This document shows, piece after piece, positions 5,090 to 63,390 of a stretch of 64,000 nt of DNA. The translations under genes and the position numbers were made by a program. The notes under the pieces were generated by a model that saw only the letters and a program-made list of their open reading frames with translations, had not been told where the DNA came from and ran no database searches. This DNA is from Deltaproteobacteria bacterium (GTDB taxonomy: Bacteria; Desulfobacterota; Binatia; Bin18). The stretch spans positions 13,243-77,242 of the forward strand of contig SHZE01000001.1 in the NCBI GenBank assembly GCA_009692435.1. Reading direction: 5' to 3'. Within the stretch, counting starts at the first letter, position 1. Each line of letters opens with the position of its first letter.

Positions 5090-5251
5090 ATGAAAAGAAC
5101 GTATCAGCCCAGTAATGTCCGCCGCAAACGGACGCACGGTTTTCGCAAACGCATGAGCACCACAGCCGGTCGCGCCGTTCTCAAACGCCGACGGGACAAA
5201 GGACGTAGACGCCTCGTTGTCACTGTCCCCCCCAAGCCAGCACACCGGTGA
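5090..5251 (+). CDS. rpmH: 50S ribosomal protein L34 (missed by ORF track, <60 aa)
   Basis: Manual translation gives [44 protein letters not shown]..., a near-consensus L34, sitting immediately upstream of rnpA with stop/start overlap. Confidence 0.85.
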
Positions 5252-5610
5252 ACCCTGCTGTCCCATTGTTGACGTTTCCGAAAGAAGCACGGCTCCTCGC
5301 ACGTCGCGAGTTCTTGCTCTTACAACAGCGCGGAAAGAAACGGCACGGCCAGCATTTCTTAGTCATCACCGCACCGGGCCGCACCCAGCGGTCCCGTCTC
5401 GGCATAACGACCTCGCGTCGCTTCGGCAAGTCTGTGGACCGGAATCGTATGAAACGGTTGTTGCGCGAATTTTTTCGTGAACGCCAACATGGTCTCTTTC
5501 CAGCCGTCGATATTGTTATTATTCCCAAGGCCGGAGCCCAAGAGCTTTCGCTTCTCCAAATTGATGTGGAACTCGAACGGCTCCTTTCTCTGTCCAAGCG
5601 CGCTTCCTGA
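5248..5610 (+). CDS. rnpA: Ribonuclease P protein component
   Basis: 120 aa basic protein with the RnpA motif region ([16 protein letters not shown]) in the conserved position after rpmH; GTG start overlaps the rpmH stop. Confidence 0.8.
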
Positions 5611-8586: not shown

Positions 8587-8606
8587 TCGCGCGGGGCGTC
8601 TGGTTT

Positions 8607-8647
8607 GAGACTTGAGGTCTGAGGTTTTTTTACGTTTTACGTTTTGA
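8607..8647 (+). terminator. Post-jag terminator region: GAGACTTGAGGTCTGAGG hairpin, T7 tract, then a half ACGTTTT element
   Basis: agacttgaggtct stem-loop followed by ttttttt, then tacgttttacgttttga (one arm of the ACGTAAA palindromic family). Confidence 0.5.
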
Positions 8648-12779: not shown

Positions 12780-12883
12780 TGCTTATGGCTTACCTTGCGT
12801 GGTCGGCTACTCCGCGTAATCCAGTAGAGAATGATTGACTTGAAAAACTCAGGTTGTTACGGTTCGCCCAGGAGGATCCCGTT

Positions 12884-13327
12884 ATGGCCTCAGTCAACAA
12901 AGTTATTCTGGTCGGCAATCTCGGAAAGGACCCGGAGGTGCGTTTCACTCCAAGCGGACGAGCAGTCGCGAAGTTTCCCATCGCGACTGCTGAGTCGTGG
13001 ATGGATCAAGAAAACAGTCGACAGGAACGAACCGAGTGGCACAACATTGTGGTATGGGGAAAGCAAGCCGAGTCTTGCGGCCAATACTTGGCAAAGGGAC
13101 GGCAAGTGTTCATTGAAGGCGCCATCCGTTCTCGCAGCTACGATGACAAAGAGGGTATCAAGCGGTACGTCACCGAAATTGTTGCCCAACGTGTTCAATT
13201 TCTCGGGAGTTCTGGAGGAGGTGGTCGCGCTAGTGCAGAAGGTGGAGGCTCTGGCGGTAGCGGAGCAGGTGGAAACTTTGACGAGTTTGGCGGTGGGCAG
13301 ATTCCAGAGGACGACGTACCGTTTTAG
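12884..13327 (+). CDS. ssb: Single-stranded DNA-binding protein
   Basis: OB-fold N-terminus [25 protein letters not shown], Gly-rich tail and acidic C-terminus EDDVPF. A GGAGGA RBS sits 7 nt upstream of the ATG at 12884. Confidence 0.9.
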
Positions 13328-13336
13328 GTGAATAAA

Positions 13337-13412
13337 CCGTAAATATGTGAAACGTAAAGGGGAAGGGGCTGTTATGTTTTATGACCCTTTACGTTTTACG
13401 CTTCACGTTTTA
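13337..13412. repeat. ACGTAAA-unit palindromic element (family member 2 of 5)
   Basis: GTGAAACGTAAAGGGG ... CCCTTTACGTTTTACGCTTCACG inverted repeat between the convergent ssb and maoC genes. Confidence 0.6.
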
Positions 13413-14291
13413 TTCCCCTACTTTTACCACTCCTTCCCGGATCACATCCTTCCCCTCCGGGTTATATGTCTCGTAGATATAACTGTTCGCACCACCGTGG
13501 TCTGACACCGGCCAGACTGCGGTGGTGATCTCCTGCCCCGGAAAGACTGGGCGTGAAAATCGTGCACGTAGTCGGCGCAGCTTGCGGGGATCTCCGGCAC
13601 AGAGTTGGTCAATCATCACCTTTGAGGTGAACGCCATCGTGCACAATCCATGCACGACAATACCAGGGAGCCCCGCCATCTTCGCGACATTTTCGTCAAC
13701 ATGAATCGGGTTATGATCGCCAGACGCGGACGCATAGCGGAAGGTCTGATCGGTGTCGATTGTTTGTCGTACTCGCCACAGCGGTTCTCCCATTGGTGCC
13801 GCCTCCGCTACCGGTGTCCGTTTGCGGGCTCGTGCGCTCCGACCGCGAATGAGCGCGGTGAACAGCATCCGCTGGACAGATTCCCCACGCTGGTTGGTGC
13901 ACTGGACTTCCACCGTCAGCGATTCTCCCGCCGGTTCGTCGGTCATCGTCACAATGCTTGCCACGCTGGTGATGATGTCGCCAGGCACTAACGGACGCAC
14001 AAAATACATATCCTGCTCACTATGCAATAGACGCAGGACATCAACCCCAAGTTCGGTATCAGTCATGACCATCATAATCGACAGCCACCCCGTGACGACC
14101 CCAAACATCGGCGGGGCCATGATGCCGCCAGCTCGACTCGTGTCCACAAACCACGGGTTCTCGTCATTATAAGCACGGGTGTAGTTCAGCACGGCTTCAG
14201 CGGTGACTCCGTAGTCTTGTGGCGCATACTGCTTGCCGAGGAAACTGCGATTCAACCCCATCTGTTCTCCAATACGGGAGGTTACTCCCAA
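13410..14291 (-). CDS. MaoC-family dehydratase with N- and C-terminal hotdog domains
   Basis: C-terminal MaoC signature ASGDHNPIHVDENVAKMAGLPGIVVHG, and an N-terminal hotdog-like half. Confidence 0.6.
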   Translation of the reverse strand: MGVTSRIGEQMGLNRSFLGKQYAPQDYGVTAEAVLNYTRAYNDENPWFVDTSRAGGIMAPPMFGVVTGWLSIMMVMTDTELGVDVLRLLHSEQDMYFVRPLVPGDIITSVASIVTMTDEPAGESLTVEVQCTNQRGESVQRMLFTALIRGRSARARKRTPVAEAAPMGEPLWRVRQTIDTDQTFRYASASGDHNPIHVDENVAKMAGLPGIVVHGLCTMAFTSKVMIDQLCAGDPRKLRRLRARFSRPVFPGQEITTAVWPVSDHGGANSYIYETYNPEGKDVIREGVVKVGE

Positions 14292-16992: not shown

Positions 16993-17063
16993 TCAGTCTC
17001 CATACAACAAGATGCCGGAAAAGAGTAGGGCGTAAACGTCCGGCGAACAGTTTCGCGTTTTGG

Positions 17064-17125
17064 GTTTCGAGTTTCGAGTTTCGAGTAGGAAGAGGGTTGC
17101 AGGTTTCGAGTTCCGATCCTACTCC
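17064..17125. repeat. GTTTCGA heptamer tandem (x3) plus GAGTAGGA/TCCTACTC inverted repeat
   Basis: gtttcgagtttcgagtttcgag followed by an 8-bp inverted repeat. The related motif ACTCGAAACTCG recurs at 40549-40572. Confidence 0.5.
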
Positions 17126-20389: not shown

Positions 20390-20401
20390 AAATGAAAATA
20401 A

Positions 20402-20495
20402 ACCGTAAAGCGTAAAACGTAAGTCAAAAGAAGACGTAAAAAGCTGAGCGTGAACGTTAATTTTTCATGTGCGTTTTACGCTTAGCTTTTTACGT

Positions 20496-20497
<2 letters not shown>
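20402..20497. repeat. ACGTAAA-unit palindromic element (family member 3 of 5); about 25-bp stem
   Basis: AGACGTAAAAAGCTGAGCGTGAACG pairs with CGTTTTACGCTTAGCTTTTTACGTCT; flanked by further CGTAAAG/CGTAAAACGTAAG units, in the gyrB-gyrA intergenic space. Confidence 0.65.
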
Positions 20498-22937
<2,440 letters not shown>

Positions 22938-23030: not shown

Positions 23031-24185
23031 TTAAAAAATACGCATGGGCATGACGACATAAGAAAAATTTTGATCTTTCTCAGCTTGGATTAGGCACGGA
23101 CTCGATTCGTCCTTGAGCAGGAACGAGATTTTTTGTTCCCCTTCGAGGACAGAAAGCATCTCGATGAGGTACCGACCATTGAACCCGACGACGAGGTTTT
23201 CGCCCGCATAATCGATAGCGATTTCCTCGACCCCTTCGCCAAGGTCCGGGGTGTTGACCGAGATTTCCATTTTGTCTTTCTCGATCTGGATTTTGACGCC
23301 ACGCGATCGTTCGGTGGTGAGAATCAAGAGACGACGAAGGGCACTTAGTAGGTCCTCGCGAGAAAAGCTGACGACGTGTTTGGTATCTATCGGGATGACC
23401 TGGTTGTAGTCGGGAAAATCCCCCTCGACCAGGCGCATGGAGAGTTCCGTCGAGTCCCTAGCAACGTTAAGTGTTGAGCCGTGAAGCACGAGTTCAGTCT
23501 TTTCGTCTCCTTTTTCGAGTAATTTGCGGGCTTCAACGAGTCCTTTCCGGGGGAGAATCGCGCTAGGCCAGTCGATGGGCACAGTGCCGAACGCTTCGCG
23601 TTCGATGAAAGAAAGTCGGTGCCCGTCACTGGCAACCATTCTGAGACGGCCGTTTTCCTGCCCCTTTGGGGCCGTGCGGCCCTCCAAATAGACTCCGCTG
23701 AGGTTGGGGCGGGATTCATCGGGAGAGGCCGCGAAAAGGGTTTTCTCGATCATTTCCCGTAACGTCTGTCCGGCAATGGCAACTGATACTAACGGTTTCT
23801 TTCCTTCGACGTCGGCGGCAGGCGTGGAAACGAGTGCTGGGAATTCTTTAGGATCGAGGCTAGCCATACGGAATCTCGACTTGCCACTGCTGACCTCGAC
23901 CCAGCCGTTCCCGGTGGATCGTAACGAGACGCGATCTGGAGAAAGCTCTCGAACGATCTCGTACAGTTTGCGTGCGTCCGTCGTGACAGCCCCTTCTTTC
24001 TTGACTGTGGCTCTGCACTGCTGACGGAGGCCGATTTCGAGATCTGTCGCTCGGAGCGAGATCGCTCCGTCTTTCGATTCGATGAGTACATGCGAGAGGA
24101 TCGGCAAAGATGAGCGTTTCTCAACTACGCCTTGCACTAAATACAAACAGTGTAACAAATCTTCCTTTTCGAGAATGCTTTCCAT
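23031..24185 (-). CDS. dnaN: DNA polymerase III beta sliding clamp
   Basis: Three-domain, ~380 aa beta-clamp; the N-terminus LPILSHVLIE and overall length are consistent; located directly downstream of dnaA/oriC. Confidence 0.9.
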   Translation of the reverse strand: MESILEKEDLLHCLYLVQGVVEKRSSLPILSHVLIESKDGAISLRATDLEIGLRQQCRATVKKEGAVTTDARKLYEIVRELSPDRVSLRSTGNGWVEVSSGKSRFRMASLDPKEFPALVSTPAADVEGKKPLVSVAIAGQTLREMIEKTLFAASPDESRPNLSGVYLEGRTAPKGQENGRLRMVASDGHRLSFIEREAFGTVPIDWPSAILPRKGLVEARKLLEKGDEKTELVLHGSTLNVARDSTELSMRLVEGDFPDYNQVIPIDTKHVVSFSREDLLSALRRLLILTTERSRGVKIQIEKDKMEISVNTPDLGEGVEEIAIDYAGENLVVGFNGRYLIEMLSVLEGEQKISFLLKDESSPCLIQAEKDQNFSYVVMPMRIF

Positions 24186-24504
24186 TCCTCTCTTCCCTTT
24201 CTTATATTCCCAATTTTTTTCCGTTCATTCGGAGTCTTCACATTTTCATGCCTCCTTTTTTCTACTGCTACTTCTTATTTTTTCATAATAGTAGCAGTAG
24301 GGGGTGTGAATATGTGGATAAGTGGCTTAACTATATAGATTCGTTAAAATAGTTATTCACACCCCCTGTGAATAACCCTGTGAATAACTTGACCGAGGCA
24401 AAAAGTTATCCACAGGTTATCCACAGGTTATCCACAGGTTATTCACAGGTTATGCACAGGGTTATGCACAGGGTTATGCACACCCTCTCAAACCCTGTTT
24501 CCAA
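24186..24504. other. oriC: Chromosomal replication origin oriC (dnaA-dnaN intergenic): AT-rich unwinding element plus a DnaA-box cluster
   Basis: AT-rich tract 24190-24300 with a perfect 10-bp inverted repeat CTACTGCTAC/GTAGCAGTAG. Consensus DnaA boxes TGTGGATAA (24313), TGTGAATAA x2 (24367, 24379) and TTATTCACA (24353). Followed by a head-to-tail array of 7 boxes. Confidence 0.85.
24406..24490 (+). repeat. Array of 7 tandem DnaA boxes with 11-12 bp period: (TTATCCACAGG)x3, TTATTCACAGG, (TTATGCACAGGG)x3
   Basis: Seen directly in the sequence. There are no spacers between the units, so this is not a CRISPR array. Three boxes are the perfect consensus TTATCCACA. Confidence 0.85.
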
Positions 24505-25866
24505 TTAATTTTCTTCTCCGAAAACTATGTTTTCAATCCGTGCGAGAACGGCCCGTAGCTCTTCATCCTGCTTGAGGCGTTTCTCAATAGAAGCACATGC
24601 GTATAACGCTGTTGTGTGATTTTTACCACCAAAGCGGACGCCAATCATGGGGTATGAAGCCCCAGCTAACTTGCGGCACAGGAACATGGCGACTTGACGC
24701 GGAAAGGCGACCATCTGTGTCCGTTTCTTAGAGGTCAGATCAATGACCCGGATAGCGAAGTATTTGCACACCGCTTTCTGGACCGTTTCGACCGAAACTT
24801 CTTTGTCCTTATCTTTTCCCCCTCTCATGAGGTTTTGTAGGACCTGCTGAGCAAGGTCAATCGTAATCGGACTGTCAGTCATGGTAGAAAAGGCCCCGAG
24901 CTTGGTGAGCCCGCCCTCAAGCTCGCGAACATTAGCGGTCACGTGGGTCGCGATAAAGAGCGAGACATCGTGAGGGAGCTGGATTTTCTTTTGTTGCGCC
25001 TTTTTTTGGAGGATGGCGACGCGAGTTTCAAGGTCTGGTGGTTGGATATCGGCGATCAATCCCCACTCGAAGCGATTTCGCAGCCGCTCTTCGAGTCCTT
25101 CAATCTCGTTGGGAAATTTATCGGACGTGAGAATGATCTGCTTGTGGGATTGGTGAAGCGTATTGAACGTATGGAAAAACTCTTCTTGGGTCCGTTCGCG
25201 GCCGGAGAGAAACTGGATGTCGTCGATGATTAAGACATCCGCCTGGCGGAACTTATTCTTAAAGTCATCCATGCGGTCACGCCGTAGATGCGCGATCAAT
25301 TCATTAGTGAAAGTTTCTGACGATAAATAGAAAACACTCTTCCCACCTTGCTTCACGATCGTTTCGTGCCCAATCGCGTTAATGAGGTGAGTTTTTCCTA
25401 ACCCGACACCACCATAGATAAAAAGCGGGTTATAGTGCTTGCCTGGATGTTCGGCGACCGCGCGTGCGGCGGCATTGGCAAATTGATTGCCAGCACCAAC
25501 GATAAAAGAGGAGAACGTATAATTGGAGACCAGCCCGTTCTTTTTCGTGCCAGTGGAGCGTGAGGACTCCCCCTTTGTGTTCTCCCGGTCGTCATATTGT
25601 TGTGACGGAAATAGCTCGCCCTGTTGTTTGGCCGCGACATGGATGACGATCTGGACCGCGAAGCCAAGAATGGTTTCGAGCGATTTCCGAATATGGGGTA
25701 GGAGATTTTCTAATAACCAGTCACGGAACAACGAATTCGGCACTTCAAGGTGCAGCGTGTCCTCGCGGAGTGCGAGGGGTTTCACTGGCTTGAGCCAGGT
25801 TTCCGTCGTGACATGACCGACCTTCTTCTCAACCTCATTAAGGACCTGCCCCCATATATGCTGCAC
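24505..25866 (-). CDS. dnaA: Chromosomal replication initiator DnaA (start trimmed to the GTG at 25866)
   Basis: AAA+ motifs GVGLGKTHL, sensor regions and C-terminal DnaA-box-binding domain. The 58 N-terminal codons of the 511-aa ORF cover a palindromic pair of DnaA boxes (GTTATTCACACCTGTGAATAAC, 25899-25920) and have no DnaA domain-I similarity, so the true start is likely downstream. Confidence 0.85.
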   Translation of the reverse strand: MQHIWGQVLNEVEKKVGHVTTETWLKPVKPLALREDTLHLEVPNSLFRDWLLENLLPHIRKSLETILGFAVQIVIHVAAKQQGELFPSQQYDDRENTKGESSRSTGTKKNGLVSNYTFSSFIVGAGNQFANAAARAVAEHPGKHYNPLFIYGGVGLGKTHLINAIGHETIVKQGGKSVFYLSSETFTNELIAHLRRDRMDDFKNKFRQADVLIIDDIQFLSGRERTQEEFFHTFNTLHQSHKQIILTSDKFPNEIEGLEERLRNRFEWGLIADIQPPDLETRVAILQKKAQQKKIQLPHDVSLFIATHVTANVRELEGGLTKLGAFSTMTDSPITIDLAQQVLQNLMRGGKDKDKEVSVETVQKAVCKYFAIRVIDLTSKKRTQMVAFPRQVAMFLCRKLAGASYPMIGVRFGGKNHTTALYACASIEKRLKQDEELRAVLARIENIVFGEEN

Positions 25867-26267
25867 GCCGCCCCCCTCCCGTTGTTTCGCGAGAAGGGAG
25901 TTATTCACACCTGTGAATAACTCTCCAACATGACCTAATGACTGAAGTTTTTCCCCTTGCACCACAAAGTTCTCCACATACTTCTCCCCCGCCTTTTCTC
26001 TCTCCATCCCAGGGAGGCCCTGGCATCCGCCAAGCATCAATGGGGAAGAGGGGGTAAGCCTTCACTATTTTTACTGTTCTGTGTCGGAAAAAAAGAGATT
26101 GAACTGAATGAGTATGGGAATGGAGTAGACTCTTTTTTTTCCCTTTGCAAGCAAAAAAATGTACTCCGGCAGAAGTGGTTGTGTTGTCTATCGTTTTGGT
26201 TTGCCTTGACTCACAAAATGTCGGATGGTAACAGGATGAAAGTCTTTCACGCGCAGGGAACATTTCT

Positions 26268-29380: not shown

Positions 29381-29403
29381 CCTCTAAAAGGGGTCGGGTT
29401 ACG

Positions 29404-29459
29404 GGGGACGGGTTGTAGAAAACAAAAAACCGTCCCCTGTTCCCCCGTCCCCTGTTCCC
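29404..29459. terminator. GC-rich hairpin (GGGGACGG/CCGTCCCC) plus CGTCCCCTGTTCCC direct repeat between the convergent atpE and asd genes
   Basis: 8-bp perfect stem with 18-nt loop, followed by two copies of CGTCCCCTGTTCCC. No clear U-tract, so its function as an intrinsic terminator is uncertain. Confidence 0.4.
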
Positions 29460-33883: not shown

Positions 33884-35143
33884 ATGCCTCAAACCAACTT
33901 CGTCGACTACGAAAAATTCTTCGATTGTGTTCACTGTGGCCTGTGTCTGTCCTTCTGTCCTACGTATGTCGAACTCGGGACAGAGATGGACTCGCCTCGT
34001 GGCCGCATTGCCACGATGCGTTCACTGCACGAGGGAAAATTCCCGCTTGATGCCGAGGTGGTCCGTCATTTGGACCTCTGTTTAGGGTGTCGTGCCTGTG
34101 AGACCGCCTGTCCTTCCGGGGTGCACTACGGCGAGCTGATAGAAAGCGCGCGCTCGTTCATTGAGGAACAATATCGTCGCCCGTTGCTTGATCGCCTCAA
34201 ACGCTGGACCATCGACAAAGTTTTCCCTAATCCGCTCGGCGTGCGCGTGTTTGCGTCCATGCTCAAGTTAGGGTCGGCCTTGGGCCTGAGCCGTCTCGCT
34301 CGTTCAGACAAGCTTCCTCAACAACTCCGGTCCTGGTTCAGCATGGTGCCCGAGCGTGGCAGTGTGTCCTCGGCCACACTCCTCGAACACTATCCAGCGA
34401 TTGGCGAGAAACGGTACACAGTCGCGGTGCTTTCTGGGTGTGTCATGCCCGCGTTGTTTGGGGCGACGAATGAAGCCACGGTCAAAGTGCTACGCCATAA
34501 TGGTTGCGAGGTAGTGGTGCCGAAAGCACAGGGGTGTTGCGGCGCTCTGCTGCTGCACAATGGCAACAAGCCGGACGGTCTCGCGCGGGCTCGTCAGACG
34601 ATTGATGTTTTTAACGGATTGAACGTTGACGCGCTCATTATCAATGCCGCTGGCTGTGGCGCAATGATGAAAGAGTATGGCGAGCTGTTCAAAGACGATC
34701 CGGTCTACCGTGAGAAAGCTCAGCGGGTGGCGGCAAAGGTTAAGGATGTGACGGAGTTTCTCGGCGGCATTCCGCTCATACCGCCCTCGCGTGAGGTGAA
34801 GAAGAGCGTGACCTATCACGATGCTTGCCATCTCGCCCACGGCCAAAATGTGCGCTCGCAGCCACGTGCCCTGTTGCGGGCGATTCCTGGGCTTCAAATC
34901 ATGGAATTGCAAGAATCAGACTGGTGCTGCGGCAGTGCGGGGACCTACAACCTGACCGAGCCAGCAATGGCGCGTCGGCTGCTCGACAAGAAAATGGCGA
35001 ATATCGAAGCGACCGAAGCCGAACTGGTGGTGATGGGGAATCCCGGCTGTCTCATGCAAATTCGTGCCGGGTTGCAGCAACGGGGATTGTCGATAAAGGC
35101 TGTGCATACGGTAGATTTGTTGGCCGAAGCATACGAAGGGTAG
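33884..35143 (+). CDS. glcF: Glycolate oxidase iron-sulfur subunit GlcF
   Basis: Two 4Fe-4S ferredoxin motifs (CVHCGLCLSFCPTY; CLGCRACETACPSG) and two CCG cysteine-rich domains. Confidence 0.85.
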   Translation: MPQTNFVDYEKFFDCVHCGLCLSFCPTYVELGTEMDSPRGRIATMRSLHEGKFPLDAEVVRHLDLCLGCRACETACPSGVHYGELIESARSFIEEQYRRPLLDRLKRWTIDKVFPNPLGVRVFASMLKLGSALGLSRLARSDKLPQQLRSWFSMVPERGSVSSATLLEHYPAIGEKRYTVAVLSGCVMPALFGATNEATVKVLRHNGCEVVVPKAQGCCGALLLHNGNKPDGLARARQTIDVFNGLNVDALIINAAGCGAMMKEYGELFKDDPVYREKAQRVAAKVKDVTEFLGGIPLIPPSREVKKSVTYHDACHLAHGQNVRSQPRALLRAIPGLQIMELQESDWCCGSAGTYNLTEPAMARRLLDKKMANIEATEAELVVMGNPGCLMQIRAGLQQRGLSIKAVHTVDLLAEAYEG

Positions 35144-35199
35144 ACGTGAAACGTAAAACGTAACCACTCCCTTCTTTTCTTTACGTTTTACGCTTTATT
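35144..35199. repeat. ACGTAAA-unit palindromic element (family member 4 of 5)
   Basis: GACGTGAAACGTAAAACGTAA ... TTACGTTTTACGCTTTATT inverted repeat immediately after the glcF stop. Confidence 0.6.
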
Positions 35200-35215
35200 G
35201 ATAGGGCGAGAATCT

Positions 35216-36151
35216 ATGGCAACACAACGACTCTTCACCCAAGCCGAACTCGATGTTCTATGTCTTCCTGGGGAGGGACGATTTTTCCCGGCGCTCGATA
35301 GTGGAGATACAGCACACGCGAAAGCAGTCTATGCGGATGTCGAAGCTGCGTTCCGCGAATTTCACGACATCTATCATAAATGGGTGGCGACGATTCTTGA
35401 ATTTCTCTATGAGCGCCACGGTCATGAGGCGATGGCAAAATCCTTGCCTCTCGAGAAGATGCTTGCCGGTGCATTCCGGATGGGAATGACATTGGAGCAA
35501 GTGCTGACAGCGGACTCGGCTCCACAGCAACGGATGGCAGCGCTCATTGACGCTGGTGACACGACTGGAGCAAAAAAGTTCTTTCGCGAAGTTGAAAAAG
35601 CGTGCCGCGACCTGCACGACTTCTATCGAGATTGGGTGACTTCTCTGCTCTCGCATGTCTATCGTGAATATGGGGTTGATGCCTTGGAGCAGTGTCTCCG
35701 CTCTAGCAGTGAAAAAGGCTGGATGCCGTGGATGATGGAGGACATCACCCATGATACGAAAACCCGGCTACGCGATTGGACCCGTCTCTTAGCGGTTGGT
35801 AACTTCGCGACTTTCTCAATAGCAGAGGATGACGAGAAGTTTGTCATCACCCAAAACCCTTGTGGCAGTTGTGGTCGTCAGCAGCAGGATGGGCGCTACG
35901 ATCCACCGTGGCATCTCGCGGTCATCAAAGAGCCCCATCCGATTACGTTCACTCATGGTGATGTGACTGCGTATCGCACGCACATTGCGGTTATGCACAC
36001 GATCATGCCGATTGAGCGTATCGGTGCTCCATGGCCAGTGATCCAATGCCCTCGAACGAAAGAGGAGAAATGTCAGATTCTGCTCTATAAAAATCCTCGC
36101 CAAGCGGCGCCCGAACATTATGCAATGGTGGGGATGCAGAAGCCCCTATAG
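35216..36151 (+). CDS. Hypothetical protein with an internal tandem duplication and a C-terminal Cys/His-rich region
   Basis: Two homologous about 60-aa helical segments (AKAVYADVEAAFREFHDIYHKWVATILEFLYERHGHEAM vs AKKFFREVEKACRDLHDFYRDWVTSLLSHVYREYGVDAL), then CGSCGR...HGD...H...C. No family recognised. Confidence 0.35.
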   Translation: MATQRLFTQAELDVLCLPGEGRFFPALDSGDTAHAKAVYADVEAAFREFHDIYHKWVATILEFLYERHGHEAMAKSLPLEKMLAGAFRMGMTLEQVLTADSAPQQRMAALIDAGDTTGAKKFFREVEKACRDLHDFYRDWVTSLLSHVYREYGVDALEQCLRSSSEKGWMPWMMEDITHDTKTRLRDWTRLLAVGNFATFSIAEDDEKFVITQNPCGSCGRQQQDGRYDPPWHLAVIKEPHPITFTHGDVTAYRTHIAVMHTIMPIERIGAPWPVIQCPRTKEEKCQILLYKNPRQAAPEHYAMVGMQKPL

Positions 36152-41349: not shown

Positions 41350-41597
41350 AGTGCCCCCTCGGACTCCGAACTGTTTTGGACTCCGAACTTTCTTCATAGC
41401 AAACACTCGCAGCGTTGCCAGCACCTTCTTTGAGTATCCCGCCGGCCTCCCTTAAAGAAGCGCAGGTTGTCTGCTAAGCACACAGGGCACAACTTTCAGT
41501 GGCCAGTGGCCAGTTTTCGCAAGGTTCGGAAAAGGCGGCTCATAGAGCTGAACGCTGATGGCTGACTGCTGATACACAAGGAGATGCCGCAACCCGC

Positions 41598-42581
41598 ATG
41601 GCTATTACACTGACACAACTGTTGGACAAGATGTTCGCCGGTGATGAAGTGGCGTTGGCCCGCCTCATGACATTAATGGAACGGGAAGGAAAAGAAGTCG
41701 GCCCCATTCTCGAAGCGCTGGCACCACGGCTAGGGAAGGCGTTCACAATTGGTATTACCGGCCCGCCAGGAGCAGGCAAATCGAGTTTGGTGGACCACCT
41801 TGCCGCACTGATGCGTAAGGCCGGCAAAACGGTCGGTGTGGTGGCGATTGATCCATCGAGTCCATTCACCGGTGGCGCGTTATTGGGTGATCGTATCCGC
41901 ATGTCCCAACACTACCTCGACAAAGGTGTCTTCATCCGCAGCATGGCGACGCGCGGAAGCCACGGGGGACTCGCCCGCGCCACCAAGGATGTCATCAAGC
42001 TGCTTGACGTATTTGGTCGCGACTATGTGTTAGTGGAGACGGTCGGCGTCGGTCAGACCGAACTCGATGTGATGGGTACGACGGACACCGTCTTGGTCGC
42101 GGTCGTCCCTGAAGCTGGCGATGGCGTGCAGGTGATGAAAGCCGGGTTGATGGAAATCGCCGACATCTTTGTTGTCAACAAATCGGACCGCGATGGCGCG
42201 GCGCGGATGCAGACCGAGCTGAGTCTTATGCTCGAACTCAAGTATAGTAACCGCCCAGCGTCCGAAGCCAACCGTCCACTCTGGCGCATTCCGGTGCTTC
42301 CAACCCAAGCCCTCACCGGAGTTGGGCTGAAGGAACTCTTCCAAGCGATTGAAACCCATCATCAGTTCTTGATTGACAGCGGGGAACTCGAACGGCGACG
42401 GAAAGAGCGGCGACGCGAAGAGCTACTGTCTCGTGTTGAGTACGAAGTCCGGCGGCGGCTGACGATCAAATCCCGCACGGATATCGCCTTCGCGCAGTTC
42501 TTAGAGGACGTGAGCGAAGGGAAAATCGATCCGCATACCGCTTCGACAAAAATTCTGGAAAGCTCGGTTCTTCGGGAATGA
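41598..42581 (+). CDS. meaB: Methylmalonyl-CoA mutase-associated GTPase MeaB (ArgK)
   Basis: P-loop GITGPPGAGKSSLV; G-motifs VETVGVGQ and NKSD; ~327 aa. Confidence 0.85.
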   Translation: MAITLTQLLDKMFAGDEVALARLMTLMEREGKEVGPILEALAPRLGKAFTIGITGPPGAGKSSLVDHLAALMRKAGKTVGVVAIDPSSPFTGGALLGDRIRMSQHYLDKGVFIRSMATRGSHGGLARATKDVIKLLDVFGRDYVLVETVGVGQTELDVMGTTDTVLVAVVPEAGDGVQVMKAGLMEIADIFVVNKSDRDGAARMQTELSLMLELKYSNRPASEANRPLWRIPVLPTQALTGVGLKELFQAIETHHQFLIDSGELERRRKERRREELLSRVEYEVRRRLTIKSRTDIAFAQFLEDVSEGKIDPHTASTKILESSVLRE

Positions 42582-42661
42582 AGAATGAAGAATGAAGAAT
42601 GAAACGGGAAACGCATGACATGTTGCGTATTCCGTGAACAACGAAAAAGGAGGCCGTTCTT

Positions 42662-46712: not shown

Positions 46713-46741
46713 TCCACACACTGAGTCCTGCTGACTTCTCC

Positions 46742-46793
46742 GAGACTGGTCTGAGACTGGTCCTAGACTTGGTTTGGGACTGGCCTGAGACTA
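46742..46793. repeat. GAGACTKG-unit tandem repeat (about 5 units) in the MDMPI-xerD intergenic space
   Basis: gagactggtct gagactggtcct agacttggttt gggactggcct gagact. The same unit occurs at 8607-8624 and inside kdsB at 62703-62766. Confidence 0.55.
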
Positions 46794-47730: not shown

Positions 47731-50456
47731 CACGCTGCCCCACGAGTGACCTGCAGTTTCTCCCGCAGTTGTCCAGCAAGCTGATCGGGGTTGGCGACTT
47801 TCACGCCATTATGGTCCGTCACATAAAATACATCCAGCACATGGTCCACATTGGTATTGATCTTGGCCAGGTGAATCACCAATCCCATCGTAAATAACGT
47901 ATAGGTAACGGAGAAGAGCAGCCCCATACGATCCGGCGCGGTGATGTCGATCACGGTGTAGTTGGTGGAGCTGTGGTTATCCACCTCGACATCCGTGCCA
48001 TAGCGGGAGGAGTGCTTATGGAGAAAAGACGGGACACGGGTGGCGCGCAGGAGATCGTCAAGCGTGCGTTTGCCTCGCAGGACCTCTTCCAGTCGCGCGT
48101 AGATATGCGTCCAGGTATCGGCATCCATCACCATGTTCCCCCGGTCGGCATGGGAAATCTGGAACACATCCAAGGCCAGCCCCTCGCTACTGGTTGTGAT
48201 CCTCGCTCCGCCAATACTGAGCCCCGCCGTGGCGAGGACGCCGGTGAGCATCGCGAACAGCCCGGGGCGATCCTGGGTCGCAATGGTGAACTCACTGTAC
48301 TCGCGTTCGGGAAAATGGAGCAGGGTGGCGCGGTACGCGTCCGTGTTGCCATTCGCGGGTTGCGTGAAGCGAGTCACAAGCTGAAAATGGCGGGGAATCG
48401 CTTCCTCCGGGGTCGATAATAAATAACTTTCCGGCATCGCGGCGAGAAACGTGGAGATGGCATCCACGGGAGCCGTCGCTCGGAGAGCGTGTATCAGCCG
48501 ATCTTGACGACGAACGAGACGCGCTTCCCGGTTCTCCTCAACTGGCTCACCGGTCTCCAGCCACTCTAAAGCGCGCAGATAGAGTTCATCGAGCAGCCCC
48601 CCTTTCCACGGGTTCCAGACTTTTGGACCAACCGCTTTCATATCGGCAAAGGTCAAGAGATACAGCTTCTTGAGCAGGGCGGGGGTCTCCACCATACGAG
48701 CAAATTCCGCGATCACGGTTTCGTCGGAGAGGTCTTTCCGTTGAGCGATAGAGGACATATGCAAATGGTGCTGGACGAGGAAGTGCCATTCGTGAGTCTC
48801 GTCCTGCGGGAGCTGCCAGCGCGCGGCGGCGGCTCGGGTCATCGCGGCTCCGCGTTCATCATGGTCGTGGCCGTAGCCTTTCCCGACATCGTGGTAGAGC
48901 ATGGAGAGAAAAAGAAATTCAATCTTGTCAATTTCGCGAATGACCTGCGTGAGCAGCGGGTGGTCGGCTTTGTACTCGCCATTGCGCAACCGCTCTAATT
49001 CGACGATGCCACGGAGCGAATGCTCATCGACGGTAAAGAAATGGTACATGTCGCGTTGCGTTTGCCAGCGTAGCCGACCAAATTCCGGCAAGAGCCAGCC
49101 CAGCACGCCCAGATCGTGCATGGTCGCGAGGGAGTAAGATACGCGCTGCTTCCACGCCAACACCGCGAAAAGTTCCGCCCGCGCCTCTGGGGTATCGCCC
49201 AGAGCTGGGGGGAGCTGTTGGACGTGGTCAGCAAGGAGGCGTTGGGTGTCATGAGCGATCCGCACCTCATGCCGCTGCGCGTCGTGGAAAACGGTGATGG
49301 CATTAAGCGGGTCGGTGGTCAGGATTTTCGCATCCGACACGACCAAGGTGCCATCAAGAATGCGCACGCCCTCCCGGATTTCTCGCCCGCCTGGACGACT
49401 GAAGAAACCAGAGAATCGCGGCGTGGGCCGACACCGTTCAAGGAGCCTCTCCGAAAAGGCGGAAATGGTCGTGGCGTGGCGATAGTATTCCCGCATAAAG
49501 CTGGGGACATCGGCGAAGCCCAGCGCTGGAGCAAGCGCATCTTGTCGCTCAAAGGTCAGCAGGTCCTGCTCCGCGTGCTCGGATAAATGCAGGGCATTGC
49601 GGACCCGCCACAGAAAGTCCCGCGCGGCTTCCACTTCCTTGAGGGTGGCGGCCGCGAGCACCCCTTTGGGAATGAGTTCGCGCAGGTCGCGAATCTTGAA
49701 CTTGACTTTCGCCAACCACCCGGCGGTGTGCAGATCGCGGAGCCCGCCTTTCCCTTCCTTGAGGTGCGGCTCCAGAATATAGATCGAGTCTCCGTAGCGT
49801 CGATGCCGCTCCTGGCTTTCGTTGGCTTTCTCTTGAAAGAAACGGTCGGCATTCTTATTGACGATCTCTCGCTCCACCGCAGTGGTGAACTCTTGCACCA
49901 ATGGTTCGTCGCCGCACAAGTAACGGTAGTCGATGAGCGCGGTTTTGACTTGGAAGTCCTGATTGGCCAAGCGGACACATTCGCGGACGTTGCGCACGGC
50001 GTGCCCAATCACGAATCCGGCGTCGAGTAAGCTGTAATACAGGGTCTCACAGATAGTCTCGACGTAGGGTGAAATTTTCCAGTGGTAGAGAAAGAGGAGG
50101 TCAATGTCGGAATACGGGTTCAGTTCACCACGACCGTAGCCCCCTTGAGCCAGCACGGTGCAGCGTTGATTCAGCCGGGGATTCCGTTGGGCATAGATTT
50201 GGGAGGCGGCGGCAAAGAGGTACTGAATCAAGCGGTCGATGTACCGCGTATGGAGCGTGACAATCTCGGTGCCCGTTGCGTTCGCCGCGTGCTGGAGAGC
50301 GAGCTCGGCGAGAACGCGCGCATGATATTCCTTGCTAATCGCGCGCAGATTGAGTGGCGGTTCCGTCGCCTCATCCAAGTTGCTTGGTGGCAGTGGCGGG
50401 AGAGGGATCGGCACGGGAGTCGAGGTTGTCCGAGCAAGTGTCTTATCTGTTATCAT
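47730..50456 (-). CDS. glnD: [Protein-PII] uridylyltransferase / uridylyl-removing enzyme GlnD
   Basis: Nucleotidyltransferase domain, HD domain (HDVGKG...HDERGA) and two C-terminal ACT domains; 908 aa. Confidence 0.9.
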   Translation of the reverse strand: MITDKTLARTTSTPVPIPLPPLPPSNLDEATEPPLNLRAISKEYHARVLAELALQHAANATGTEIVTLHTRYIDRLIQYLFAAASQIYAQRNPRLNQRCTVLAQGGYGRGELNPYSDIDLLFLYHWKISPYVETICETLYYSLLDAGFVIGHAVRNVRECVRLANQDFQVKTALIDYRYLCGDEPLVQEFTTAVEREIVNKNADRFFQEKANESQERHRRYGDSIYILEPHLKEGKGGLRDLHTAGWLAKVKFKIRDLRELIPKGVLAAATLKEVEAARDFLWRVRNALHLSEHAEQDLLTFERQDALAPALGFADVPSFMREYYRHATTISAFSERLLERCRPTPRFSGFFSRPGGREIREGVRILDGTLVVSDAKILTTDPLNAITVFHDAQRHEVRIAHDTQRLLADHVQQLPPALGDTPEARAELFAVLAWKQRVSYSLATMHDLGVLGWLLPEFGRLRWQTQRDMYHFFTVDEHSLRGIVELERLRNGEYKADHPLLTQVIREIDKIEFLFLSMLYHDVGKGYGHDHDERGAAMTRAAAARWQLPQDETHEWHFLVQHHLHMSSIAQRKDLSDETVIAEFARMVETPALLKKLYLLTFADMKAVGPKVWNPWKGGLLDELYLRALEWLETGEPVEENREARLVRRQDRLIHALRATAPVDAISTFLAAMPESYLLSTPEEAIPRHFQLVTRFTQPANGNTDAYRATLLHFPEREYSEFTIATQDRPGLFAMLTGVLATAGLSIGGARITTSSEGLALDVFQISHADRGNMVMDADTWTHIYARLEEVLRGKRTLDDLLRATRVPSFLHKHSSRYGTDVEVDNHSSTNYTVIDITAPDRMGLLFSVTYTLFTMGLVIHLAKINTNVDHVLDVFYVTDHNGVKVANPDQLAGQLREKLQVTRGAA

Positions 50457-50465
50457 AGAAAACCT

Positions 50466-50548
50466 ACGGTCAAACGTAAAGCGTCAAACGTACAATATGC
50501 AATGTGATCCGCCGTGGGTTTTTCACGATTGACGTTTGACGTTTCACG
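50466..50548. repeat. ACGTAAA-unit palindromic element (family member 5 of 5)
   Basis: GTCAAACGTAAAGCGTCAAACGTA ... GATTGACGTTTGACGTTTCACGC inverted repeat between the amiC 3' end and the glnD start. Confidence 0.6.
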
Positions 50549-50552
50549 CTCC

Positions 50553-52010
50553 TCACAAATCACCGGCGGCATCGTCTCGCAAGAAACGTGCGATTCCTTG
50601 AAAGAGTCCCTCAGCAAGCTCCTCTTGATAGGTAGAGGTCCCCAGGCGTTTCCCTTCAATGGCATGCGAGAGAAACGCGGTCTCGACCAGGATACAGGGC
50701 ATGTGGGCACCAACAAGGACATAGAAGGGCCCCTTTTTCACACCAAGATCACGGGCGTCAGGATAGTGCGCGCGAGCTTGGTTGACAAGCGCGCGCTGGA
50801 CAGACCGGGCGAGCGCGATCGACTCTTCTGATTTTCCGGTTTGGATCAAATCACTGAGAATCAGCGCGAGATCATTCCCCCGTCGTCCCTGGCCTCCTCG
50901 CGCAAGATTGCGGTTTTCGAGCTTTGCTAACCGGAGGGTCGCGCGATCGTTTGTGTTGTTCAGGTAATACGTCTCAATGCCGTGGGTCTCGCTGTTCGGG
51001 CTCGCATTCGCATGAATGGAAATGAAGAGGTCTGCCTTTGCCGCATTCGCCCGAGCGGTACGCCCTGGCAGTGAAATAAACATGTCACGACCGCGGGTGA
51101 GCATGACCTCGACCGAAAGACGGTCTTGTAATTTTTTGGCAAGCCGCTTGCCGATCGCCAACACGACATGCTTTTCCCAGATGCCGTGGTGCCCGCGGGC
51201 TCCAGGATCATGACCGCCATGTCCGGGGTCGAGCATGATGCGATAGCGGCGCCCGGTTCGAGGTCGGGGCACTGGCGGTGCGGATTCTGGCGACGCTTCC
51301 GACACCTCCTCCTCCACTTCATCTGACGCCGGAGGTGTGACGGGAAGAGGAGAAGGCGTGGCAGGTGGTGACTCCTCCTCCTGGTCTTCTCGGTTTCCTT
51401 GGTCTTTCTGAGTTTGAGGTCGAGGTTCGGGGACTTGGCTGGGAGGTTCCGGTTCTTGTGGTGGAGGTTGTGGCTCGTGGCGTTGCGGTTCCAGGTCGCG
51501 GTAGGGACGAGGAGAAGACACCTTCCGCAACACAATCACCACTTGATAAGGGGATCGGAGGTCGAGCGCGTGATAGGTGCTGCTCCCCGCGAGTTCGAGA
51601 GCAATCCTCACCGTCGCGGGAAATATTTGCTCACTACGAACCGACGTGAGGAGTGCATCACCAACCCGAAGAGTCGCGGGAATGCTTGAGGCCAGTGTCG
51701 CCGATGAAAAAATAATATCGAGACGGGTCGGAGGAATATCAGCTCGTTGCTCAGATGACCCAGACTCGGCTGTGACTTGGTAACGGATTGGCCGCGAGAG
51801 GGAGATAATGACCCGTGTCGCATCATCAGTGGTCAGCGTACGAACGTTGGTGATGAGACCGATATCCTGTGCGGCGAGAGGGGTGACACTGCCCGTTATG
51901 AGAAGGAACAGCGCCAAGAGCATGGAGAGAGAAGAGCATGGGAAGGAGAGCAAACGACCTGAATCGCGCCAGAGAAAAAGAGGGGAAAGAAAGAGGTGAG
52001 AACCATTCAT
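50553..52010 (-). CDS. amiC: N-acetylmuramoyl-L-alanine amidase (AmiC-like: AMIN domain, Pro-rich linker, Amidase_3)
   Basis: C-terminal Amidase_3 motifs IMLDPGHGGHDPGA, LFISIHANA and ETAFLSH; signal peptide; PEPQPPP-rich linker. Confidence 0.8.
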   Translation of the reverse strand: MNGSHLFLSPLFLWRDSGRLLSFPCSSLSMLLALFLLITGSVTPLAAQDIGLITNVRTLTTDDATRVIISLSRPIRYQVTAESGSSEQRADIPPTRLDIIFSSATLASSIPATLRVGDALLTSVRSEQIFPATVRIALELAGSSTYHALDLRSPYQVVIVLRKVSSPRPYRDLEPQRHEPQPPPQEPEPPSQVPEPRPQTQKDQGNREDQEEESPPATPSPLPVTPPASDEVEEEVSEASPESAPPVPRPRTGRRYRIMLDPGHGGHDPGARGHHGIWEKHVVLAIGKRLAKKLQDRLSVEVMLTRGRDMFISLPGRTARANAAKADLFISIHANASPNSETHGIETYYLNNTNDRATLRLAKLENRNLARGGQGRRGNDLALILSDLIQTGKSEESIALARSVQRALVNQARAHYPDARDLGVKKGPFYVLVGAHMPCILVETAFLSHAIEGKRLGTSTYQEELAEGLFQGIARFLRDDAAGDL

Positions 52011-52092
52011 CCGCTGTACCCTACTCCTCCCTCGTATGCCTCCCCTCTTCGTTATCCGCGAGGACGGGTCGCGACCCGTCCTCGCGCGATCT

Positions 52093-59882: not shown

Positions 59883-59969
59883 GCCTGCGCCAAAATACTA
59901 TCTTTATCAGGTTGCGCAACGACAGGTGTCAGTGAAGAGGGAAGAGGGAAGAATTGCGGGGCGTGTTGT

Positions 59970-62479: not shown

Positions 62480-63390
62480 AACAGTGCCTCCTCTGCGCGT
62501 TGTAGGTCCTCTGGTGTGTCTACTTCGATCGTGGGTCGTTCGGTTTCACTCACGACGATGCGATACCCCCACTCCAACGCGCGTAATTGTTCCAGTTGTT
62601 CGCATTGCTCCAACGGGGTGCGTGCGAGTCGCGGGAAGGTTAGCAAAAAATCCCGACGATACACATACAAGCCGATATGGCGGTAGCCGAGCATTGTCGT
62701 TTGGGACTGACCGTCAGGTTGAGACTTGAGACTTGAGACTTGAGACCTTGGACTTTGGACTTGAGAGCGTGCCATCTGATCGCGCACGTAGGGAATCGGG
62801 CTCCGAGAGAAATATAACGCGTACCCCTCACGATCAGTCACGACTTTCACCACATTGATGTTTTGCCACTCAGCAAGGTCATGGATCGGTGTCTTCACCG
62901 TTGCCATCGCCGCCGCTGGTGCCCGTGTCAACGCGGCCACCGCATCTTCAACTAACGAGGGAGGAAAAAAGGGCAGATCGCCTTGCACATTCACGATCAC
63001 ATCGGCAGTCAGTCCGCGGGCAACCTCGGCCAGCCGGTCGGTCCCAGTCGGATGGTCGGCACGTGTCATCGCGACCTCACCACCGATAGCGCGCACCGCG
63101 TCAGCGATGCGGTCATCATCCGTCGCCACCAACACGCGCGCCAGACCACGGACACGGCATGTCTGTTCGTAGACATGTTGGATCATCGGCTTACCACGCA
63201 GCAATGCTAGCGGCTTGCCGGGAAAACGGGTGGACCCGTACCGCGACGGAATAAGAGCGACAACTTCCAGTTTCGATCTCCTATGAAGGCTATGGTTTGT
63301 TTTGTCCGGGAAGCCGATTGGCAGCAACCGAACCATACGAGAGAAGGGAAAGATCGTCAAATAAAAGAGCCGCGCCAGCACTACAAGCAC
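62476..63390 (-). CDS. kdsB: 3-deoxy-manno-octulosonate cytidylyltransferase KdsB, carrying an in-frame low-complexity insertion encoded by an octamer tandem repeat; start uncertain (likely downstream of 63390)
   Basis: Motifs [17 protein letters not shown] and NVQGDLP, and C-terminus ...[12 protein letters not shown]...[15 protein letters not shown]...[12 protein letters not shown]. Relative to E. coli KdsB it has about 16 extra residues ([16 protein letters not shown]) at the repeat. Confidence 0.8.
62703..62766. repeat. GAGACTTG octamer tandem repeat (x3-4, plus GGACTTTG x2) inside the kdsB coding sequence
   Basis: gagacttgagacttgagacttgagaccttggactttggacttgagag. The inserted length is a multiple of 3, so the frame is kept. 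The same unit is found intergenically at 8607-8624 and 46742-46793. Confidence 0.7.

Follow-up and report, generated by a model that had tools for sequence, protein, structure and literature searches.

The intergenic region between gyrB and gyrA of a Binatia bacterium carries, directly behind the gyrB stop codon, a palindrome composed of repeated 7-nt units. The first-pass annotation described it as one of five copies of a dispersed, REP/BIME-like family. In this study, we asked whether such a family exists, what kind of element it consists of, and what it might do at the ends of genes. Throughout, the window is the whole stretch of 64,000 nucleotides (64 kb) that was analysed.

The heptamer array and its five loci

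We read the sequences of the five loci and found tandem 7-nt units of the form CGTRAAN (consensus CGTAAAA) at all of them. A chain detector requiring at least two CGTNAA units at a spacing of 6–8 nt returned nine chains in the 64-kb window, compared with 0.25 expected from mononucleotide shuffles, and eight of the nine fell within the five loci, which bears out the proposed dispersed, heptamer-built family. TRF independently reported period-7 arrays at 8628-8645, 13388-13412, 20399-22, 35144-63, 35179-97 and 50521-48. At four loci, an A-rich array is followed by a spacer and then a T-rich array, forming hairpins of 15–28 bp, and this order means that a long hairpin can fold on either DNA strand or either transcript. 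The loop sequences of the window copies are unrelated, and only the 7-nt unit is common to them. The single architecture previously assigned to all five loci was thus seen at these four, whereas the T-rich array at 8628-8645 stands alone, with no A-rich counterpart, matching its description as a half element after jag. Folding energies, suggested earlier as a check, gave z-scores from -6.9 to about -2.5 at the four paired loci. An assembly artefact was excluded, as the elements lie inside contigs of many independent assemblies, megabase contigs included.

The gene names given to the flanks were confirmed by Pfam for Jag, MnmE, MaoC, the CCG/Fer4 GlcF-like protein, Amidase_3 and GlnD, and homology and synteny agreed on gyrB, gyrA and ssb. 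Two details were corrected: gyrB, gyrA, the amidase gene and glnD lie on the minus strand, and the ssb ORF spans 12854..13327. The elements had also been placed always just after stop codons. This held for gyrB, the GlcF-like gene, the amidase gene, ssb and maoC, with stops 0–4 nt from an array or inside a unit, but not for jag, whose stop (TAG 8584-86) lies 41 nt upstream of the lone array.

The gyrB–gyrA element

The element between gyrB and gyrA contains the following parts:

20472..20497, minus strand: A-rich arm of the hairpin, mRNA strand AGACGTAAAAAGCTAAGCGTAAAACG, directly 3' of the gyrB TAG
20457..20471: loop of the hairpin, about 13–15 nt, not conserved among relatives
20432..20456, minus strand: U-rich arm of the hairpin, mRNA strand CGTTCACGCTCAGCTTTTTACGTCT
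20402..20424, minus strand: second T-rich array, unpaired, mRNA strand ACTTACGTTTTACGCTTTACGG, ending 12 nt before the gyrA start (20389)

Immediately behind the gyrB stop (TAG 20496-98, minus strand), the sequence reads ACGTAAAA. The stem of about 25 bp proposed for this site is real, with arms of 23 nt (20432-20454 and 20475-20497) that are 91% complementary. The minimum free energy of 20395-20500 was -39 kcal/mol on the plus strand and -28.6 kcal/mol on the minus strand (z -6.9 and -4.4). The second T-rich array at 20402-20424 is kept in the relatives L004 and L005, and could serve as an alternative pairing partner of the A-rich arm; in the predicted minimum-energy structure of L004, the A-rich arm is paired with an array of this type.

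We compared this site among relatives. GyrB of the window organism, an uncultured bacterium listed at NCBI as 'Deltaproteobacteria bacterium', is 76–78% identical to that of Candidatus Binatia, the nearest named relatives. The element is also present in L003, L004 (the same as L205) and L005, with a GyrB identity of 90–91%; L206 (86%) has a degenerate element, and L207 and L001 (81%) have none. The gyrB–gyrA intergenic region measures 93–152 nt in relatives with an element or its remnant versus 62–65 nt in those without. The units and loops at this site differ among relatives, while the neighbouring dnaN–gyrB region aligns cleanly. In a consensus hairpin from five orthologues, 8 of 25 pairs were doubly changed, and the covariation term was unfavourable (+1.08).

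The other four loci and a wider period-7 habit

The remaining loci of the window are as follows:

8626..8647, plus strand: lone T-rich array between jag and mnmE, 2.6 copies of TTTTACG
13330..13415, no strand assigned: palindrome between the convergent genes ssb and maoC, arms GAATAAACCGTAAATATGTGAAACGTAAAGGG and CCCTTTACGTTTTACGCTTCACGTTTTATTC
35144..35199, plus strand: element 3' of the GlcF-like gene, ACGTGAAACGTAAAACGTAAC, a 15-nt spacer and TTTACGTTTTACGCTTTATT
50466..50549, minus strand: element between the amidase (amiC-like) gene and glnD, with units of the CGTCAAA, CGTGAAA and CGTAAAG types

The palindrome reported between ssb and maoC is present, but it is wider than the 13337-13412 first given for it. 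The ssb stop (TAG 13325-27) is 2 nt from the outermost degenerate unit, and the maoC stop (TAA 13410-12, minus strand) lies within the outermost unit; the minimum free energy was -31 kcal/mol on the plus and -26.5 kcal/mol on the minus strand (z about -6). Behind the GlcF-like gene, the stop (TAG 35141-43) is directly followed by ACGTGAA, and the next ATG is at 35216; folding of 35140-35205 was modest (about -15 kcal/mol, z -2.5). The amidase stop (TGA 50553-55, minus strand) is 4 nt from the array and glnD starts at 50456 (minus strand), with similarly modest folding of 50460-50555 (-29 and -31 kcal/mol on the plus and minus strands, z about -2.7). The lone array precedes the mnmE start (8660) and is itself preceded by a TTGAGAC-like heptamer array.

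Two regulatory readings of these units were rejected. The idea that TTTACG/TTGACG units act as -35 boxes of promoters does not hold as a general explanation, because the only site flagged, 50480-50452, has a -10 box that overlaps the glnD start codon. The resemblance of GGTCAAA at 50468 to a CtsR operator was judged a coincidence, since it occurs at one locus only and CtsR is a regulator of Firmicutes.

Among the tandem repeats of the window, period 7 was the most frequent (12 of 33 arrays). Its density was 18.8 per 100 kb; the control loci, 789 kb in total, had 3.2 per 100 kb, and their dominant repeat periods were 9 and 12. Six period-7 unit types were found in the window, including CGTAAAA, CAGTGGC and GAAGAGG, and the arrays of other units include:

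62719-62766 and 8604-8624: TTGAGAC array
42576-42603: GAATGAA array
17049-17086: AGTTTCG array

Chloroflexota loci contain still other heptamers (CTAACAC, GTGACNN and CGTGATT). CGTAAAA is one unit type amid a general excess of period 7.

Distribution beyond the window

We scanned a genome collection with one genome per species for the pattern CGTAAAACGTAA-N16-46-TTTACGNNNNRCG, a motif count of the kind first proposed for the single genome. At least 119 stretches beyond the window matched, compared with about 17 chance matches that we estimate for the whole collection under uniform base composition, and all matches listed bear extra units outside the scan pattern. The control loci were metagenomic gyrB loci, unselected for the motif and collected by a GyrB C-terminus scan (at most 68% identity among the matches listed); in 789 kb, they contained no hairpin and one array of at least three units. 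Among viral contigs, 2 of 2.9 million contained the pattern. The abundance of copies with extra units, the lack of hairpins in the controls and the scarcity in viral contigs indicate that the CGTAAAA family is real, lineage-restricted and present in several phyla.

Hosts among the matches listed were chiefly metagenome-assembled genomes (MAGs) of Chloroflexota (Anaerolineae, Caldilineaceae, Chloroflexia, Thermoflexales, Ardenticatenales, Dehalococcoidia and Limnocylindria). Binatia/'Deltaproteobacteria' and about ten further phyla were also represented among these matches, with hosts in NC10, Rhodothermales, Acidobacteriota, Planctomycetota, Victivallales, Verrucomicrobiota, Poribacteria, Elusimicrobia and others, although some host labels may stem from binning errors. 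In the unit profile of the matches listed, C1, G2, T3 and A5 are fixed, position 4 is A in 79% and G in 17%, and positions 6–7 are variable. A typical element is 66 nt long and, at about 41% G+C, poorer in G+C than its host genome (about 58%); it has a median of 22 pairs with a median G–C pair fraction of 0.38. Loops and flanks are unrelated between copies across the at least 119 scan matches, which share the unit alone.

Position, orientation and stop codons

We classified 122 hairpin elements from the window and the scan loci, with genes called by greedy longest-ORF selection. The gene contexts were as follows:

Co-directional: 70 elements; 310 background intergenic regions
Convergent: 26 elements, about 17 expected; 84 background intergenic regions
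Divergent: 7 elements; 92 background intergenic regions
Intragenic: 2 elements (2 of 105 classifiable)
Contig edge: 17 elements

The skew relative to the background was significant (p = 0.002 by count, 6e-5 by length), so that the mapping to gene ends proposed earlier places the elements next to stops and seldom between divergent genes. For co-directional elements, the median gap is 2.5 nt to the stop upstream and 22 nt to the start that follows. Measured from the stop to the array, distances fall preferentially at -19, -12, -5, 2, 9 and 16, in the phase of the unit, because each CGTRA holds TAA or TGA and the unit length of 7 is no multiple of 3. At 39 of 100 junctions, the array contains the stop codon, and in-phase positions remain over-represented when only distances of zero or more are counted (20 of 61, p = 2e-4).

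With a stop in every CGTRA and a unit length not divisible by 3, about three units shut all reading frames to ribosomes arriving from either side. Consistent with this, 205 of 244 arms (84%) close all three frames when read from outside inward, versus 4 of 244 in the complementary reading. Arrays collected independently of the scan pattern have A or G at position 4 in 90% of units, versus 56% among all CGTNA pentamers, and they are ordered A-rich then T-rich rather than the reverse by 18 to 1.

The arrays also enter coding sequence. In relatives that lack the element, MaoC ends in ...AEIAPS* or ...AEISST*; it ends in ...AEIIRDA* in L004, where the tail is encoded by CGTGATGCGTGA units, and in ...VVKVGE* in the window. 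These differences arise because array units are translated. In the same comparison with relatives, the tails of SSB (DDVPF*) and GyrB are unaltered by the arrays.

Turnover at orthologous sites and the mobile-element reading

We compared further pairs of orthologous sites. L070 and L124, with flanks 93% identical, have five and seven units, a two-unit difference confined to one arm; in L043 and L088 (80%) the loop is kept and the arms are not; and the element of L120 corresponds to 440 nt of unrelated sequence in L121. Between two populations 99.5% identical, the elements were identical and no change in unit number was seen. Orthologous sites retain the architecture, but the number and type of their units change faster than nearby non-coding DNA does. 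This is how a simple-sequence repeat (SSR) turns over; the elements are not being replaced from a master copy.

These results bear on the first-pass assignment to REP/BIME elements. Each REP of Enterobacteria and Pseudomonas is an imperfect palindrome with a conserved tetranucleotide, and its near-identical copies are tied to a RAYT gene. The CGTAAAA elements resemble REPs, BIMEs and REPINs in being extragenic and hairpin-forming, in lying after genes or within operons and in being rare between divergent genes (70/26/7 versus 310/84/92 for co-directional, convergent and divergent contexts). They differ in that each arm is a tandem 7-mer array which is not a palindrome by itself: single arms fold at 0 to -3.6 kcal/mol, unlike the imperfect palindrome of 20–40 nt expected of each REP unit. 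Nor are the copies near-identical, since loops, lengths and unit order differ among the five window copies and the roughly 120 matches listed, and no link to a RAYT gene was seen in the element loci. With no recurrent mobility gene next to the copies and unit turnover of the SSR kind in addition, we do not retain the REP/BIME assignment.

A more general version of this reading is that the elements are REP/REPIN- or MITE-like mobile units, copied in trans by a RAYT-type or other single-strand nuclease and spread horizontally. Besides the REP-like traits just listed, with their 3'-end bias, it could draw on the presence or absence of elements among relatives, on the recurrence of one unit in distant phyla, and on the T-rich unit, which contains TTAC, the target tetranucleotide of IS608. 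We nevertheless regard it as very unlikely. Clustering of neighbour proteins in about 950 kb around the copies (matches listed) revealed no recurring mobility gene; all recurring families are generic (response regulators, ABC ATPases, enoyl-CoA hydratases and dehydrogenases). A heuristic HUH...Y..NP search of 3878 ORF segments gave a single RAYT-like match, in L117, which scored 63 bits against the NF047646 cutoff of 80 and has no flanking heptamer arrays. Loops and flanks are unrelated even between copies of one genome, copy length changes in 7-nt steps, orthologous copies vary by unit turnover, and the pattern is nearly absent from viral contigs. A MITE in the strict sense is rejected because internal loops are unrelated between copies and no defined ends were seen.

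Integron attC sites, CRISPR and DNA uptake sequences were set aside in view of the housekeeping flanks, the lack of a regular spacer array and the cross-phylum unit. At the gathering threshold, Rfam returned only tRNA matches for the window and 18 loci, and at a permissive threshold the focal locus gave just sub-threshold miRNA-like hairpin matches. The statement that the unit matches no REP family stands, as no named REP and no Rfam family fits.

Possible functions of the element

We lean, with moderate confidence, towards an account in which the arrays are formed by slippage in place, tolerated only in the stop-first orientation, and give a hairpin, between cistrons or at the 3' end, that contributes modestly to the processing or stability of the transcript. 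The arrays would arise and be remodelled through replication slippage rather than transposition, and would be kept only where the stop-bearing arm meets incoming ribosomes and the U-rich arm lies 3'. In the transcript, they would form an intercistronic or 3'-terminal hairpin that may act as a barrier to 3' exonucleases or as a processing site, possibly also as a weak or leaky terminator. Because the hairpin starts 0–4 nt after the stop, a terminating ribosome would be expected to melt it. By analogy with REPs, the elements could plausibly stabilise transcripts or modulate translation. The recurrence of one unit across phyla is not accounted for by slippage alone.

The hairpin itself may have no function. 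We compared folding in the sense and antisense directions and found them equal (39 vs 31, p = 0.89; G–U pairs 130 vs 137), which gives no indication that selection acts on the sense transcript. Arm complementarity at variable positions was 0.75 for an element's own arms versus 0.71 for arms of different elements (p = 0.02). Such weak arm-specific pairing, together with the unfavourable covariation at gyrB–gyrA, suggests that the hairpin may simply follow from the presence of two arrays of the same unit. These three observations fit neutral, self-propagating repeats whose stop adjacency, orientation and hairpin are by-products of purifying selection, with no positive role, because only stop-bearing arrays can touch a coding end; so do the many other heptamer unit types in the same genomes and the loss or replacement of elements at orthologous sites (L001, L207 and L121). 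We consider this explanation unlikely, given that the 18:1 orientation holds also where the gene's own stop lies upstream of the array, that inverted pairs rather than lone arrays are frequent in co-directional contexts, that the gyrB–gyrA architecture outlasts about 10–14% protein divergence despite sequence turnover, and that the unit is common to several phyla.

A canonical intrinsic terminator, with a G+C-rich stem, a loop of 3–8 nt and a direct U-tract, was also rejected, and none of the five window loci passes a scan with simple intrinsic-terminator criteria. A less canonical alternative is a factor-independent bidirectional terminator in which the A-rich array, hairpin and U-rich array replace the A-tract, stem and U-tract. 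The order of the arrays does give a U-rich 3' side on both strands, convergent pairs are enriched and divergent ones depleted, and some copies (L052 and L112) have a G+C-rich inner stem followed by T-runs; moreover, canonical terminator-like sites occur merely at chance level in the window, so that the organism may use something else. However, terminator-like sites are not enriched in the elements (15 of 96 versus 30 of 217 element-free 3' intergenic regions), and the stems have just about 38% G–C pairs. Most intergenic elements are co-directional (70 of 103), and a distance of about 22 nt to the next start argues against efficient termination, which would silence the downstream gene at gyrB–gyrA, jag–mnmE and amidase–glnD, where there is no room for a promoter. 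This alternative therefore appears distinctly unlikely.

The arrays might instead be multivalent sites for a protein that binds single-stranded RNA or DNA, such as S1, a cold-shock protein or another factor with a 7-nt register, that recognises the CGTRA core. Across phyla, the CGT-R-A core is constant and the loops and remaining positions vary, the lone T-rich arrays at 8628-8645 and 20402-20424 precede starts without a clear Shine–Dalgarno sequence, and S1, Csp and CsrA have been proposed to bind TAACTGA arrays (PMC4679880). Against this, the conserved T-R-A is equally explained as a stop codon, period 7 mismatches the DNA helical repeat, the arrays are short and imperfect, and the candidate protein is still hypothetical; we think such a role highly improbable.

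A bolder proposal, to which we give little credence, is a cross-phylum, bidirectional 'stop-everything' module, which would combine three-frame stops on both strands with a hairpin and be read or spread by a putative trans factor, for example a nuclease or a protein that binds single-stranded RNA or DNA. If it were true, that factor would link the end of translation to the processing of the mRNA or to how strongly the following cistron is expressed, and horizontal spread would explain one 7-mer in Chloroflexota, Binatia, NC10, Rhodothermales, Verrucomicrobiota and others.

Whatever the function, in many bacterial genomes heptanucleotides outnumber every other class of long simple repeat, and the CGTAAAA family is a well-defined case in almost wholly uncultured lineages (Binatia-like and Chloroflexota). 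It offers three testable regularities: arrays flush with stops, stop-bearing units facing ribosomes from both sides, and hairpin pairing. For annotation, the arrays matter because they provide stop codons and recast protein C-termini, as in MaoC, render intergenic regions of essential operons such as gyrB–gyrA hypervariable, and could be misannotated as REPs, terminators or small RNAs.

Comparison with known heptamer repeats

A literature search with exact 12-mers returned nothing but an unrelated primer-type match. We compared the family with heptamer repeats of other sequence. Heptanucleotides have been described as the most abundant long SSRs, with polymerase slippage as the proposed origin (Mrazek 2007, as quoted in PMC4679880 and PMC4692102). 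The genomes of that survey resemble the window in that period 7 is dominant (as quoted in PMC4679880). The cyanobacterial STRR (short tandemly repeated repetitive) heptanucleotides of Calothrix PCC 7601 likewise comprise several heptamers tandemly amplified in non-coding DNA; their unit sequences differ from CGTAAAA, and the account of them in PMC4692102 mentions neither an inverted-pair architecture nor stop adjacency.

The closest parallel in architecture is found in Xanthomonas, where each genome has 70–75 convergent GGGAATC pairs capable of forming stem-loops, whose location is conserved between related species while length and sequence vary (Rehm et al. 2015, PMC4692102). The GGGNATC repeats of Xanthomonas and Nostoc share with CGTAAAA the tandem 7-nt units, the intergenic location (89–93% there), a position nearer the upstream ORF (mean 28 nt there) than the downstream one, and rarity between divergent genes (7–8% there) (PMC4692102). 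In contrast, the GGGNATC unit is G-rich, quadruplex-forming and stop-free (PMC4692102), whereas CGTAAAA is A/T-rich and contains TAA or TGA. CGTAAAA arrays are also shorter (2–4 units, at most 11), are flush with the stop (median 2.5 nt), which often lies inside them, and occur in different hosts, namely Binatia-like bacteria, Chloroflexota and others.

TAACTGA repeats, known from Beggiatoaceae, Cyanobacteria and Bacteroidetes (MacGregor 2015, PMC4679880), are likewise intergenic heptamers that provide stops in all frames in the forward reading, which limits their overlap with coding ends to about 18 nt (PMC4679880). They also resemble CGTAAAA in that one unit occurs across distant phyla with no evident transfer mechanism, and in that they are found in operons of essential genes. 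However, almost all TAACTGA sets are direct repeats (169 direct, one inverted), and they lie just upstream of starts with no predicted structure (PMC4679880), whereas CGTAAAA typically forms an inverted pair and is anchored on the upstream stop.

The CGTAAAA elements thus have head-to-tail period-7 units, stand amid a period-7 excess, vary among relatives in unit number and sequence at a conserved locus and are predominantly intergenic. Since two defining features of REP/BIME elements, palindromic units and near-identical copies, are lacking and the arrays behave like SSRs, the family falls among the heptanucleotide long SSRs and is an inverted heptanucleotide-SSR pair of the LSSR/STRR-like kind. 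What is new here is the unit, the host lineages and the tighter link to the stop codon.

Heptamer units at the maoC 3' end

The maoC reading frame ends in heptamer units in both the window and L004, a relative that carries the gyrB-gyrA element:
window 13410-13440, maoC 3' end with heptamer units
L004 10430-10444, maoC 3' end with heptamer units

The final 4-6 residues of MaoC vary among the relatives, reading VVKVGE* in the window, IIRDA* in L004 and IAPS* in L001, a relative without that element. The maoC stop codon is provided by the heptamer array, and the C-terminal differences arise because heptamer units are translated.

Other repeats in the window

Among the repeat periods in the window, 7 was the most frequent, and several further arrays were found:
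42576-42603, perfect (GAATGAA)x4 array at the 3' end of the MeaB-like GTPase gene (41598..42581)
62719-62766, TTGAGAC heptamer array, x6.9
8604-8624, short TTGAGAC run adjoining the lone T-rich array between jag and mnmE
46733-46792, period-11 array of GAGACTGGTCT, related to the TTGAGAC arrays
17049-17086, AGTTTCG x5.4, period 7
41497-41514, CAGTGGC x2.6, period 7
59934-59952, GAAGAGG x2.7, period 7

The TGA stop of the GTPase gene lies within the first GAATGAA unit, and GAATGAA is a second heptamer family that closes all three frames with stops at a gene end.

Two other inverted repeats were observed:
29390-29459, inverted G-rich GGGGTCGGGTTACGGGGGACGGG and C-rich CCGTCCCCTGTTCCCCCGTCCCC arrays, period 7-8, between convergent genes
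52057-52086, perfect 30-bp G+C-rich palindrome (CGCGAGGACGGGTCG / CGACCCGTCCTCGCG) between the amidase gene and its upstream neighbour

The former is a hairpin-forming repeat distinct from the CGTAAAA type, and the latter has no relation to the heptamer family.

An oriC-like region was also present between dnaA and dnaN:
24505..26040, minus strand, dnaA
24200-24482, oriC-like region
23031..24185, minus strand, dnaN

Its parts run from an AT-rich stretch through DnaA boxes (TGTGAATAA, TGTGGATAA and TTATTCACA) to a tandem array in which an 11-bp box of TTATCCACAGG type is repeated seven times (TRF 24405-24482, 95% matches).

Elements in other genomes

L117, a locus in an Anaerolineae MAG, carries a RAYT-like reading frame:
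L117 765-1550, RAYT-like ORF

This ORF scored 63 bits against NF047646, below the cutoff of 80, and a G+C-rich palindrome lies within its frame (1098-1159). Heptamer arrays do not flank it, and a heptamer hairpin is 2.9 kb away.

In one Anaerolineae MAG, three contigs (L010, L058 and L069) hold copies of one element that are, together with their flanks, about 97% alike, and in these contigs the element belongs to a larger repeat. Another locus contains a nested element:
L099 about 5240-5380, inverted GTGACNN heptamer arrays outside, TTACG-type array inside

The GTGACNN heptamer likewise contains TGA, and these outer inverted arrays indicate that the stop-first arrangement, in which stop-bearing units face incoming ribosomes, also occurs in other heptamer families.
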